Below are positions 10,616 through 12,199 of a stretch of DNA of 29,279 nt, piece after piece. Position numbers and translations under genes: made by a program. A model generated the notes under the pieces. That model saw nothing but the letters and a program-made list of their open reading frames with translations. It searched no databases and had not been told where the DNA came from. Numbering within the stretch: position 1 is the first letter of the stretch; each line of letters opens with the position of its first letter. Source of the DNA: Chloroflexia bacterium (GTDB lineage: Bacteria > Chloroflexota > Chloroflexia > QHBQ01 > JAICKM01); assembly GCA_038239755.1 (NCBI GenBank), contig JBBSEL010000001.1, forward strand, positions 1-29,279. The letters are read 5' to 3'.

Positions 10616-12199
10616 TCAGGCGCGGCCCAGCACGCAAGCGAGAGTATAGGCGTTGTTGCTGAAGGCGTAGACCAGGATGGGGTGTTGGGCCGCCGTGTCA
10701 CTGTAGAGTTGCTGGCCGAGCAGCGCGGCGAACTCTACCGGCCCGGCCACGAAGAGCCACACCGCGTCGGCCTCGCTGTGGTCCCACAATTCGCGCACGG
10801 TATCCCCGATGCACCAGGCCCAGGCCCGCGCCTGCTCGGGTGCGGTGATCGCCTGGCGGGACGCCCCGTCCACCGGGGCGGCGGTGAGTCGCCAGCGGGG
10901 GGGCGCGGGTGCCGTGGTCAGCCAGGCATCCACGGCGGGGGGCACCGTGCGCGCCACTGCGATTTCGAGGAGCACCGCCCGCTCCGCCCCCTCTTCGGTC
11001 AGCAGGGTCCTCGTGATGCGGAGATCATCGGCAGGCCCAGGCGGCCCCGTGCTGCTCACGGTCATCCCCTCCGGGTTGATCCAGCGCACCGGCACGCTGC
11101 CCTTCGGCGGGAACCGGTAGGCCAGCGCGACCGCCGCCGATAACCGCGCCTTCAGCCAGACCGTGAGCGGCACCGGGTACTGCTGCCTGGCGAGCAGCGC
11201 GTGGACATCGTCCAGGGCGGGCTGCAACTGTGCCTGCCAGCTTGCGGGGTCCGGGTCGCCCTTGGCGAAGAGCGCCGTCCAATCGCAGTCCAGGTGCAAC
11301 ACCTCTGCCGCAGCGGAGTAGGGAAAGGTGTGGAAGCTAACGACCAGGCCCTGCGCCTCCGCCTGTGCCCGCGCCATCCGCCCGGCCAGGGCACCCCGCA
11401 GCACGCGCGCATGGAGGGGCCGTCCCCCTACCCCGATAGGTGTCTGCCAGGAGAGCGGCTGGAGTGGGGTGAATACCTCCACAGCGGTTTGGGCCTTGGC
11501 CTGCCAGGCCCCCATTGGTGGTAGGAGCGGGACGATGGCAAAAGTCGCCTCCACCGCCTGTCGGGCGAGCGCGGCCTGCGCGGCGGGCTCCCACCATCCG
11601 GCGGTCTCCCATCCCTTCCGGCCCACATAGAAGACGACCGCATCACAGCCCCGTGCGACGAACCCTGCTAACCCCTGCCCCACCGGCAGCGGTTCTTCGG
11701 TCTGGCTCCAGCGCACCCGCAGCCCCCGCAGCCGCCACGCCGTCGCCAACTCGGCCACCGCCCCCGCGTCGTTGGGGTGCGATACGATCAGCACCGTCGC
11801 CGGATCGGCGGGTGTCAGATCGGTGCGTGCCATTGCGGGAGGGAGGTTAGGTACCGATGGCAGCGGCGTCGCCGTGGCAGGCGTAGTCAACTCAGTGCGG
11901 AGCGCTTTGAGATCGCGCCCCGCATTGCCGCCGCGCCCATGAAACAGCGCGTTCTCCAGCAGGACCAGCAAGGCCGGGGTGCCGTCGTCCAGCGCGCCCC
12001 ACCCTTCCACGGCCCGTATGATCGCATCCAGGTCCACACTGATAGTCGTTGAGCGCCCCACGCCGCGCACCAGCGCAGGCGGCAGATCATTCAGCAGCAG
12101 CGCGCGCCCCTCGATAGTCTGAAACACCGGCAAATCGGCTAGCGCGGTCAACAATCGCTGGCGTTGGGCGCGGGTCAATGTGAGATCAGGCTCGGTCAT
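10616..12199 (-). CDS. EAD-like + TIR-like + SAVED fusion; candidate cyclic-oligonucleotide-sensing effector
   Basis: N-terminal ~100-aa helical domain (LLTALADLPVFQTIEGRALLLNDLPP...DLDAIIRAV) resembling effector-associated domains. Central TIR-like pattern (VLIVSHPNDAGAVAELA...GCDAVVFYV...FAIVPL). C-terminal SAVED signatures (KARLSAAVALAYRF; VWLFVAGPVEFAALLGQQL; ILVYAF...Y). Confidence 0.75.
   Translation of the reverse strand: MTEPDLTLTRAQRQRLLTALADLPVFQTIEGRALLLNDLPPALVRGVGRSTTISVDLDAIIRAVEGWGALDDGTPALLVLLENALFHGRGGNAGRDLKALRTELTTPATATPLPSVPNLPPAMARTDLTPADPATVLIVSHPNDAGAVAELATAWRLRGLRVRWSQTEEPLPVGQGLAGFVARGCDAVVFYVGRKGWETAGWWEPAAQAALARQAVEATFAIVPLLPPMGAWQAKAQTAVEVFTPLQPLSWQTPIGVGGRPLHARVLRGALAGRMARAQAEAQGLVVSFHTFPYSAAAEVLHLDCDWTALFAKGDPDPASWQAQLQPALDDVHALLARQQYPVPLTVWLKARLSAAVALAYRFPPKGSVPVRWINPEGMTVSSTGPPGPADDLRITRTLLTEEGAERAVLLEIAVARTVPPAVDAWLTTAPAPPRWRLTAAPVDGASRQAITAPEQARAWAWCIGDTVRELWDHSEADAVWLFVAGPVEFAALLGQQLYSDTAAQHPILVYAFSNNAYTLACVLGRA

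Follow-up and report, generated by a model that had tools for sequence, protein, structure and literature searches.

A degenerate TIR-SAVED protein with an effector-associated domain, encoded beside a type III-A CRISPR array of a Chloroflexia bacterium, is a putative signalling adaptor

What does a protein do that joins an effector-associated domain (EAD), a TIR-fold domain and a SAVED cyclic-oligonucleotide sensor, when its gene lies beside a type III-A CRISPR system? The question is raised by the 527-aa protein P0001, the product of the minus-strand gene at positions 10616-12199 of a 29,279-nt stretch of Chloroflexia bacterium DNA. This stretch (the window) is the whole of contig C1 of a fragmented metagenome-assembled genome (MAG; G000; 5.38 Mb in 1133 contigs, 71% complete). 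An earlier note on the DNA had described P0001 as an EAD-TIR-SAVED fusion, as the likely sole second-messenger effector of the CRISPR system, and as a filament that could recruit a partner in trans through its EAD. The comparative evidence suggests that P0001 probably passes the CRISPR alarm on through recruitment of other defence proteins, without NAD+ hydrolysis of its own. P0001 joins two known kinds, the TIR-SAVED ancillary proteins of type III systems and the EAD-coupled conflict systems. What is new here is the TIR, predicted to be degenerate in all five EAD-fused TIR-SAVED proteins that were found, in two separate clades.

The three-domain architecture was examined at the levels of sequence and predicted structure. 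Pfam recognized SAVED at residues 346-522 (E 4.8e-12, 46.4 bits; cut-off 26.2) and EAD8 at residues 12-103 (28.9 bits, or 32.7 bits in a six-frame genome search; cut-off 27), with weaker EAD2 and EAD5 matches overlapping the latter. The EAD8 showed 40-58% identity to many EAD8 proteins (Pfam family PF19961). No Pfam TIR match was obtained in P0001 at E<=1, and the PADLOC model SAVED_TIR matched P0001 (E 8.6e-18) through the SAVED half only. In an exhaustive HMMER search of 1.84 billion representatives, P0001 gave 265 matches. The top matches aligned with residues ~128-521 at 35-40% identity (E 6e-62 to 2e-51) and are proteins of ~410-450 aa, or longer fusions, to which Pfam assigns TIR_2 and SAVED; no further representative in this search spanned all three domains. 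A 28-sequence profile matched PDB 7QQK, the TIR-SAVED filament protein bound to cyclic triadenylate (cA3), through both domains (profile positions 11-401, E 3.8e-30), and phmmer with P0001 alone found nothing among the PDB sequences. The AlphaFold2 (AF2) model of full-length P0001 (predicted local distance difference test score [pLDDT] 83.4, predicted TM-score 0.76) consisted of a helical N-domain (10-105), a disordered linker (109-121, pLDDT <50), a flavodoxin-like beta/alpha domain (135-250) and a confident SAVED domain (280-527, pLDDT mostly >90). Its top Foldseek match was 7qqk_A (E 1.9e-15, TMt 0.70), followed by Cap4, SAVED-CHAT (8tl0), Cap5 and CalpL (9eyi). Taken together, the alignments to TIR_2+SAVED proteins, the profile match to 7QQK and the Foldseek fit show that the three-domain architecture proposed earlier is real. 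Word-index homologue searches with P0001 and with an alignment of four proteins returned only one relative, P0002, and therefore have no bearing on how rare these proteins are. Pattern scans of genome contigs gave only the Chloroflexia MAG, and those of metagenome contigs gave none.

Next, the catalytic residues of the TIR domain were compared. Helix alphaC reads GWWEPAAQAAL in P0001 and FIWxxEVPAAL in the family consensus, in the same register, which places Ala206 in the column of the catalytic Glu. The profile alignment to 7QQK likewise put Ala206 in the column of E84 of MkeTIR-SAVED, and the E84Q change is reported to abolish both the NAD+ hydrolase (NADase) activity of that protein and its CRISPR-driven killing and immunity (bioRxiv 10.1101/2022.05.04.490601). 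Two other polar columns were also lost in P0001, where Val occupies the Ser139 column and Gln the Asp166 column. By sequence criteria, the P0001 TIR is not a working NADase. Because the TIR has lost its catalytic residues, P0001 is better termed an adaptor or scaffold than a TIR effector.

The loss of the Glu was then placed among the relatives of P0001. The survey covered 61 TIR-SAVED proteins (search representatives and loci from the phylum), in which the Glu was kept in 51 and lost in 10. Five EAD-fused proteins were found, and the Glu was lost in 5/5. The column holds Ala in P0001 and P0002, both with an N-terminal EAD8; Ile in P0007 and Val in P0009, both with N-terminal EAD1; and Ala in P0076, which has a C-terminal EAD1. 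Among the 51 Glu-bearing proteins, the S139, D166 and E206 columns were conserved at 92%, 96% and 100%, and the four proteins with an N-terminal EAD carry V/A, Q/N/L/I and A/I/V there. These four retain the structural TIR columns G159, A210 and R213. Although only about 30% identical, they share an invariant derived 'AQAA' and a 4-residue insertion ahead of an invariant His-Pro near the C-terminus. In a maximum-likelihood tree, the four (P0001, P0007 and P0009 as three 50%-identity representatives, and P0002) were monophyletic, with a value of 98 in the Shimodaira-Hasegawa-like approximate likelihood ratio test (SH-aLRT), and were sister (100) to a Glu-bearing clade linked to cyclic-oligonucleotide-based antiphage signalling systems (CBASS). 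P0076 and P0025 formed a distant separate clade (SH-aLRT 98). Since the N-terminal-EAD clade and P0076 stand apart in the tree, gain of an EAD and loss of the Glu were paired at least twice. Three of the four clade members are attached to CRISPR features (an array leader twice, a cmr operon once), whereas the nearest Glu-bearing relatives, P0003 and P0005, lie directly upstream of SMODS+AGS_C cyclases in a CBASS arrangement. The linkage of homologues to CRISPR loci rather than to CD-NTases, a check named in the earlier note, held for these clade members and failed for the closest Glu-bearing relatives.

These data bear on an alternative that we consider unlikely, namely, that P0001 is an ordinary TIR NADase activated by cyclic oligoadenylate (cOA), like MkeTIR-SAVED or TSR1, in which the EAD modulates localization or bundling and a shifted residue such as E204 is catalytic. 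The homology to the NADase TIR-SAVEDs is contiguous with the same two-domain fold, and the TIR is under purifying selection (see below), but the Pfam TIR models no longer match P0001, the S139 and D166 columns are lost, and the column invariant among Glu-bearing relatives is Ala. A single E84Q change is enough to kill MkeTIR-SAVED. In P0001 and P0002, a Glu does stand at 204, two residues before the catalytic column, in a region of P0001 where W203 and the A210/R213 helix are retained. At the level of the clade, E204 was rejected as a catalytic Glu that has moved, since P0007 has Gln and P0009 Arg at this position.

Proteins with two TIRs were observed elsewhere. In five genomes of one genus (G273, G102, G075, G093 and G111; loci L025-L031), a TIR-TIR-SAVED protein of ~600 aa is encoded about 8 kb from a divergent Cas10, and both of its TIRs bear the Glu. 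In P0059, the SAVED-proximal TIR lacks the Glu (Val) and an added N-terminal TIR retains its own; judged from these residues, P0059 is another instance of a proximal TIR becoming a scaffold.

Is there a second messenger for P0001 to read? The window contains a complete type III-A csm operon (cas10-csm2-csm3-csm4-csm5-cas6, 2275-9203, plus strand; Pfam and PADLOC), and its Cas10 keeps GGDD, as the earlier note had seen, in an intact cyclase motif (VIYAGGDDLF). No HD dipeptide was seen in the N-terminal ~200 residues of Cas10 when the translation was read by eye, with no HD model run, and the PADLOC and Pfam matches to Cas10 begin only at about residue 143-220. The HD nuclease domain thus seems absent or degenerate, in which case cOA signalling, together with RNA cleavage by Csm3, would be the sole type III-A output. 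Read on the minus strand, array 2 gives ...ACTGAAAC and ...GGGGACTGAAAC, and the repeat at its far end, at 9399, is the most degenerate; the leader is therefore the segment between the array and the P0001 gene. A TTGACA-N17-CATACT box (10572-10544), which is a consensus match only, starts 44 nt past the P0001 stop codon, in agreement with the earlier description of the gene as ending just before the array 2 promoter on the same strand. The spacers showed no self-targeting beyond 17-nt chance matches, and cas1/cas2 were not found among the window ORFs scanned.

The claim that P0001 is the sole effector was examined in the same way. Pfam gave no match to CARF, Csm6 or Csx1 among the 20 larger ORFs of the window, as the earlier note had stated for Csm6/Csx1/CARF genes, and no second SAVED, SMODS, Csx1_HEPN or Cas02710 was found in the assembled, 71%-complete genome. 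A search of the assembly for Cas_APE2256 gave no match, but it gave none in any control genome either and is uninformative. The claim thus stands for the window and for the assembled genome with respect to the families searched; it cannot be shown for the whole genome because the MAG is 71% complete. A weak second Cas10 palm2 match was observed on another contig (G000 C200:278-580; 29 bits, 602-aa frame); it may belong to another type III system or to a GGDEF-like protein.

The SAVED domain of P0001 kept the conserved columns L303, D306, W307, W321, L329, D331, A457, F483, P487, G495, Y511 and Y518. The deviations were V381 and W481 in P0001 and P0002, A360 in P0001 alone, and F490 and Y499 in all four N-terminal-EAD proteins. 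Because the SAVED columns are mostly retained and the TIR columns are lost, the decay is specific to the TIR. The column of MkeTIR-SAVED R388 is Pro in both P0001 and the profile consensus, and that of W394 is Phe. Characterized TIR-SAVEDs use cA3 (bioRxiv 10.64898/2026.09.16.751991; bioRxiv 10.1101/2022.05.04.490601), and cyclic tetraadenylate (cA4) has been suggested for those linked to CRISPR (PMC11229360). The coordinates of the features are collected in Table 1.

Table 1. Features of the CRISPR locus and of the P0001 gene in the window
Feature	Position	Strand	Details
CRISPR array 1	1631..2184	+	8 repeats, 7 spacers; last repeat degenerate, beside cas10
cas10/csm1	2275..4701	+	GGDD cyclase motif and Zn-finger Cys cluster
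csm2	4698-5186	+	
csm3	5201-6013	+	
csm4	6015-7124	+	
csm5	7111-8406	+	
cas6	8373-9203	+	
CRISPR array 2	9399..10397	-	14 repeats of 37 nt, 13 spacers of 35-42 nt
Array 2 leader	10398..10615	-	directly 3' of the EAD8-TIR-SAVED gene, same strand; sigma-70-like box inside
P0001 gene	10616..12199	-	527 codons, ATG start; stop codon 10616-10618
SAVED cyclic-oligonucleotide sensor	10619..11413	-	residues 263-527
Degenerate TIR-fold domain	11414..11797	-	residues 135-262; Ala206 codon GCC at 11582-11584
Linker, Pro/Thr/Ala-rich	11798..11884	-	residues 106-134, predicted disordered
EAD8 domain	11885..12172	-	residues 10-105, all-helical
Upstream region of P0001 gene	12200..12276	-	palindrome CCTGCTAAACAAGTGACACGCTATTAGCAGG at 12276-12246 and TACAAT box

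The arrangement of gene, leader and array was compared with that of P0002, which is 73% identical to P0001 and is encoded on a 2-kb contig (L067). On the 3' side of the P0002 gene lie a TTGACA-N17 box like that of P0001, a leader of about 305 nt and the first part of a related CRISPR repeat. The start site, the promoter elements and the gene-leader-array synteny are all conserved. Upstream of the P0001 gene are the 31-nt palindrome, further CTGCTAA repeats and a TACAAT box at most 15 nt ahead of the ATG, and the segment with palindrome and box is nearly identical in the P0002 contig (L067:1-76). This segment points to an operator, and the mRNA may be leaderless or have a very short leader. In one pairwise comparison of the two genes by the Nei-Gojobori method (NG86), dS was 0.65 and dN/dS was 0.27 overall, with regional values of 0.116 (EAD), 0.24 (TIR), 0.29-0.36 (SAVED) and 0.54 (linker). 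Constraint is strongest on the EAD, and purifying selection acts on all three domains, the dead TIR included.

The clade member P0007, from the Chloroflexia MAG G401, is encoded in a type III-B locus. Its contig carries an integrase gene, a divergent cas6, EAD1-nSTAND1-WD40, cmr1, cas10/cmr2, cmr3-6 and EAD1-TIR*-SAVED (the asterisk denotes the TIR without the Glu). The cmr block begins after a gap of 20 nt from EAD1-nSTAND1-WD40 and ends 22 nt before EAD1-TIR*-SAVED; an EAD1-STAND NTPase and an EAD1-dead-TIR-SAVED protein thus bracket the operon on one strand. Directly 3' of the P0007 gene, two more genes were observed (457 aa and 85 aa; L070 14867-16520). Pfam has no recorded match for either, and scanning the 457-aa protein directly with Pfam likewise gave none; the Atlas gave nothing usable for this protein, and when all ORFs of this contig were compared with the window by blastp, neither gene had a homologue there. 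Both may be additional components of the G401 system.

These results also speak to the improbable case that P0001 is a cOA sink, a regulator or a ring nuclease, whose SAVED binds and perhaps cleaves cOA and whose dead TIR and EAD have no output path. No catalytic output domain is evident in P0001, and some SAVEDs do have ring-nuclease activity; a viral SAVED (9r8s) and the CalpL filament (9eyi) were among the fold matches. In addition, a preprint notes EADs fused to the ring nuclease Csx15 in type III settings (bioRxiv 10.64898/2026.10.26.761840). However, since neither a Cas10 HD motif nor another sensor was found, a sink alone would leave the locus without any cOA-dependent output. The strong constraint on the EAD and its operonic pairing with an EAD1-STAND protein in G401 point instead to an output partner.

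Which partners could the EAD8 of P0001 meet? EADs have been proposed to act as homotypic coupling adaptors (Kaur et al. 2020, PMC7159879), and the genome of the window gave 9 EAD8 matches (P0001 and 8 others). Five are above the Pfam cut-off, and one further match reaches it only by summing with neighbouring hits in its frame. The paralogues are two nSTAND1-WD40 NTPases, a NACHT protein, an EAD-nucleotide cyclase-NB-ARC-TPR protein, an EAD8-WD40 protein on contig C441 with a protein bearing a C-terminal EAD8 immediately upstream of it, a truncated ORF on contig C608 whose EAD is near-identical to that of EAD8-WD40, and an EAD8-TCAD2 protein on contig C2. The EADs closest to that of P0001 were the three on C441 and C608 (52% identity). 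The EAD of EAD8-TCAD2 was 46% identical, and its gene adjoins genes for caspase-TCAD2 and NACHT-HEAT. The order on this contig (G000:C2:1-8817; L011) is EAD8-nSTAND1-WD40 (minus strand, cut by the contig end), caspase-TCAD2 (2699-4231), EAD8-TCAD2 (4324-5196) and NACHT-HEAT (5242-8814); the EAD8/TCAD2/caspase chain is a candidate for a concrete downstream route. In the global search, the closest EAD8 relatives with additional domains were mostly EAD8-WD40 proteins and multi-EAD 'hub' proteins. A complex prediction of the P0001 EAD8 with the EAD8 of the C441 EAD8-WD40 protein returned no answer (score 0.00) and was not used either way.

The fold of the EAD8 was modelled separately. Folded alone with 23 homologues (AF2), residues 10-105 formed seven helices with a pLDDT of 91.3. 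When this model was compared by VIA-align against 48,161 chains, the top 50 matches were almost all CARD, DD, PYD or DED structures. The best was the CARD-CARD disk 5wvc_D (Z 7.8, root-mean-square deviation 2.9, 93 residues aligned), and the Apaf-1/caspase-9 CARD (4rhw_E), the MAVS CARD and the bacterial death-like domain 8ss1 scored Z 7.2, 7.0 and 6.5, respectively. The model is suggestive, and only suggestive, of a death-fold-like EAD8.

In addition, we examined where EAD and SAVED occur elsewhere: 401 genomes of the phylum were searched with a profile, and 25 of these were then searched for Cas10 and SMODS. Trypsin-SAVED genes were found 5.6 kb (G011) and 9.4 kb (G036) from Cas10, an FGE-sulfatase-SAVED gene 3.5 kb from Cas10 (G060), and a CHAT-SAVED gene (G255) on a short contig that itself had no Cas10 match; several CBASS-linked SAVED fusions were also present. 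In G024, a SAVED gene and a gene for an EAD7-bearing SAVED protein lie 8 kb from Cas10 in a type III locus. This locus (L072; G024:C369, 1565-14156) carries cas6, cas10 and three RAMP genes and then, on the opposite strand, genes for a 310-aa SAVED protein and a 394-aa protein whose EAD7 stands between two SAVED-matching segments. In G391, a CHAT-EAD2-SAVED gene (845 aa) is divergently adjacent to an EAD2-caspase gene (388 aa; L071, G391:C70, 3828-7674). The domain content of this pair reads as a SAVED sensor paired with a matching-EAD effector, and the genome gave no Cas10 palm2 or SMODS match. P0009 (898 aa) has two EAD1-like domains ahead of TIR*-SAVED and is encoded downstream of a VWA_CoxE gene at a contig end (L016:1-744), which suggests the third component of a MoxR-vWA-type ternary system. 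Fusion or pairing of EAD and SAVED, as read from the genes, is a wider theme in the class.

The same data could be read in the opposite direction: an activated EAD8-NTPase would recruit P0001, its SAVED would sense a nucleotide not made by CRISPR, and the CRISPR adjacency would reflect defence-island clustering. This reverse wiring appears improbable to us as well. EAD-TIR proteins without SAVED are a common architecture in Chloroflexota (Atlas cluster: TIR_2 100%, EAD8 82%), the genome of the window encodes the EAD-nucleotide cyclase-NB-ARC-TPR protein named above, the available DNA has a vWA gene, and no cas genes, ahead of P0009, and G391 has its SAVED fusion without a match to either kind of cyclase. 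However, the assembly gave no SMODS cyclase, recruitment of an effector with a dead TIR would serve no use, and most members of the N-terminal-EAD clade are attached directly to CRISPR features. That P0001 is a decaying relic without present function is very improbable: its catalytic residues are lost and its clade is very rare, but the 527-codon frame is intact, dN/dS is low at the divergence from P0002 (0.12 in the EAD), the arrangement of promoter, gene, leader and array is conserved in P0002, and 'AQAA' is invariant across distant proteins.

We therefore return to the reading of P0001 as an adaptor. We hold with moderate confidence that P0001 is a type III-A ancillary protein descended from a TIR-SAVED NADase and turned into a signalling adaptor that would recruit EAD8 partners upon binding of cOA. 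In the proposed sequence of events, binding of target RNA by Csm would lead Cas10, with its GGDD motif and no visible HD, to make cOA. SAVED would bind this messenger, most likely cA3 or cA4, and polymerize head-to-tail like characterized TIR-SAVED. The TIR, without its Glu and the two polar residues, would hydrolyse no NAD+ and would serve as a lateral scaffold of the polymer, from which the flexible linker would display many copies of the N-terminal EAD8. The clustered EAD8s could then dock homotypically on EAD8 proteins of the same genome and activate them, with EAD8-WD40, the EAD8-STAND NTPases and the EAD8-TCAD2 protein beside caspase-TCAD2 as candidate partners, and the outcome would be cell dormancy or death. 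We infer the biochemical steps beyond the GGDD motif of Cas10 from homology to MkeTIR-SAVED, from the proposal of Kaur et al. 2020 and from the comparative patterns. Recruitment in trans, as suggested in the earlier note, appears strengthened by the loss of the Glu in all EAD fusions, by the cmr operon with its EAD1-STAND gene, by the EAD8 paralogues and by the constraint on the EAD.

The logic resembles that of MyD88 or the apoptosome, driven by a CRISPR second messenger. MyD88 is an animal Toll-like receptor adaptor with a death domain and a non-catalytic TIR. By analogy, P0001 would likewise carry a death-fold-like helical adaptor ahead of a non-catalytic TIR scaffold, and polymerization of its TIRs, induced from upstream, would cluster the adaptor and nucleate partners. 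No homology is claimed beyond the shared folds, and the proposed trigger differs in being a cyclic oligonucleotide bound by SAVED. A more tentative extension, which we regard as possible, is a CRISPR-triggered hub of the MyD88 or apoptosome type, in which the EAD8 array of the dead TIR-SAVED polymer would nucleate a STAND, WD40 or TCAD2/caspase module and so tie adaptive RNA sensing to an innate cell-death network of the caspase/STAND type in this probably filamentous Chloroflexia bacterium. TIR*-SAVED would then be a 'socket' for different EADs (EAD8 or EAD1, N- or C-terminal).

Several observations weigh against P0001 as a recruiting adaptor. The Glu was also lost in five TIR-SAVED proteins without a recognizable EAD: P0025 and P0044 (Ile in both; N-extensions of 150 aa and 85 aa without a Pfam match), P0059, and P0094 (Leu) and P0136 (Phe), in which no extra module was recognized. 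The residue E204 may leave residual or altered catalysis in P0001 and P0002. All death-fold Z scores of the EAD8 are below 8, a range that helical bundles often reach, and a Foldseek search with this model returned nothing significant (best E 0.59, the de novo protein D_1CY5_M1). The genome-wide EAD8 scan found no partner encoded in the window, and the nearest paralogues sit on other contigs of the fragmented, incomplete MAG. Homotypic EAD-EAD interaction is itself a published proposal from bioinformatics. The two EAD1s of G401 are not nearest paralogues, and their best matches (44% and 39%) lie on other contigs; thus, the rule of Kaur et al. that adjacent copies are closest does not hold there. 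The EAD-fused clade is tiny, with its three representatives and P0002. An RpoB fragment of the window genome and of G401 was 89% identical, compared with 77-80% to other genomes of the class and phylum, so the two organisms are related and their cases not wholly independent; the cases do differ in CRISPR subtype, in EAD family and in ~70% of the protein sequence.

We compared P0001 with described systems. MkeTIR-SAVED, from a CBASS of Microbacterium ketosireducens (PDB 7QQK; Hogrel et al. 2022), shares with P0001 the TIR-then-SAVED fold and the two-domain homology, and it can be driven by a type III system (bioRxiv 10.1101/2022.05.04.490601). It is a cA3-activated NADase filament with catalytic E84, whereas P0001 has Ala there, has lost two more polar TIR residues, carries an extra N-terminal EAD8 and linker, and is encoded beside csm genes and not a CD-NTase. 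TIR-SAVED effectors have been described in 7 type III loci (subtypes A, B and D; Hoikkala et al. 2024, PMC11229360), and TSR1 is a TIR-SAVED-Crn4 protein whose C-terminal fused ring nuclease tunes the response (bioRxiv 10.64898/2026.09.16.751991). Like P0001, these are TIR-SAVED proteins encoded with type III systems, and TSR1 also has an extra domain. They are activated by Cas10 products and, in contrast to P0001 with its degenerate TIR, are described as active NADases; fusion to an EAD or inactivity of the TIR is mentioned in neither paper.

The EAD-coupled conflict systems (Kaur et al. 2020, PMC7159879; 2021, PMC8195603) resemble the situation in the window genome in having a terminal EAD8, several paralogues on STAND, effector and adaptor proteins, caspase, TIR and WD40 partners, and a lineage of filamentous bacteria. 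They are triggered by an NTPase (STAND, MoxR-vWA or GTPase), whereas the EAD of P0001 sits on a cyclic-oligonucleotide sensor in a CRISPR locus; SAVED is mentioned there once only, as a rare nucleotide-binding domain (PMC7159879). CARF and SAVED proteins with vWA-MoxR-VMAP, TCAD9 and EAD7 have been reported near type III loci (Altae-Tran et al. 2023, PMC10910872). These cOA sensors, too, are coupled to ternary or EAD modules, and P0009 after its vWA gene and the SAVED-EAD7 protein of G024 are comparable; that survey-level observation includes neither a TIR-SAVED joined to EAD8 or EAD1, nor a dead TIR, nor a STAND gene in a cmr operon. No description of EAD-TIR-SAVED or of an inactive TIR-SAVED was found in the literature, with subscription journals mostly outside the search. 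In the earlier note, too, the architecture was not known as a characterized CRISPR effector; a link of type III CARF/SAVED proteins to EAD or ternary systems had already been noted in the survey of Altae-Tran et al. SAVED-CHAT and the CalpL-CalpT-CalpS system show cOA-induced SAVED filaments whose target is a second protein and not a bulk metabolite, as is proposed for P0001; they carry a catalytic protease in cis, whereas P0001 has no evident catalytic domain and would be linked through a non-catalytic adaptor.

Other genes of the window were also noted. A 944-aa HTH_3/NB-ARC/TPR STAND NTPase without an EAD is encoded at 20690-23524 (minus strand), 8.5 kb from the P0001 gene, and in blastp weakly resembled the EAD1-STAND protein of G401 in its P-loop region (29% over 156 aa). 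Small ORFs upstream of the P0001 gene (12307-12647, minus strand) had no Pfam match. Next to them, at 12963-18635, lies a mobile-element-like block with a coiled-coil 383-aa ORF, DUF4326, a double-HTH protein, a Bro-N protein and SSB, and a DDE_3 transposase gene is found further along (27538-28383); the CRISPR locus thus borders DNA derived from phages or other mobile elements. At the other end, an open-ended 454-aa ORF (3-1364, minus strand) has at least 5 internal repeats of about 150-165 nt (families D3/D4) and fragmentary Pfam matches only; it probably encodes a propeller-like repeat protein.

Known type III ancillary proteins have a catalytic or pore-forming output of their own, or cleave one dedicated partner. 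If the proposal for P0001 is true, it would be a new design, a cOA sensor whose enzyme has decayed to a scaffold and whose sole free module is an adaptor of the homotypic kind. Through induced proximity, the CRISPR signal would reach a genome-wide network of STAND NTPases, WD40 proteins and caspases, and adaptive and innate prokaryotic immunity would be physically joined. A defined small molecule would provide the first tractable trigger for the EAD-adaptor hypothesis, with the G401 operon (EAD1-STAND, cmr1-6 and EAD1-TIR*-SAVED) as a compact, clonable test case. Such a system would also be a bacterial parallel to the animal adaptors that combine a death domain with a scaffold TIR.

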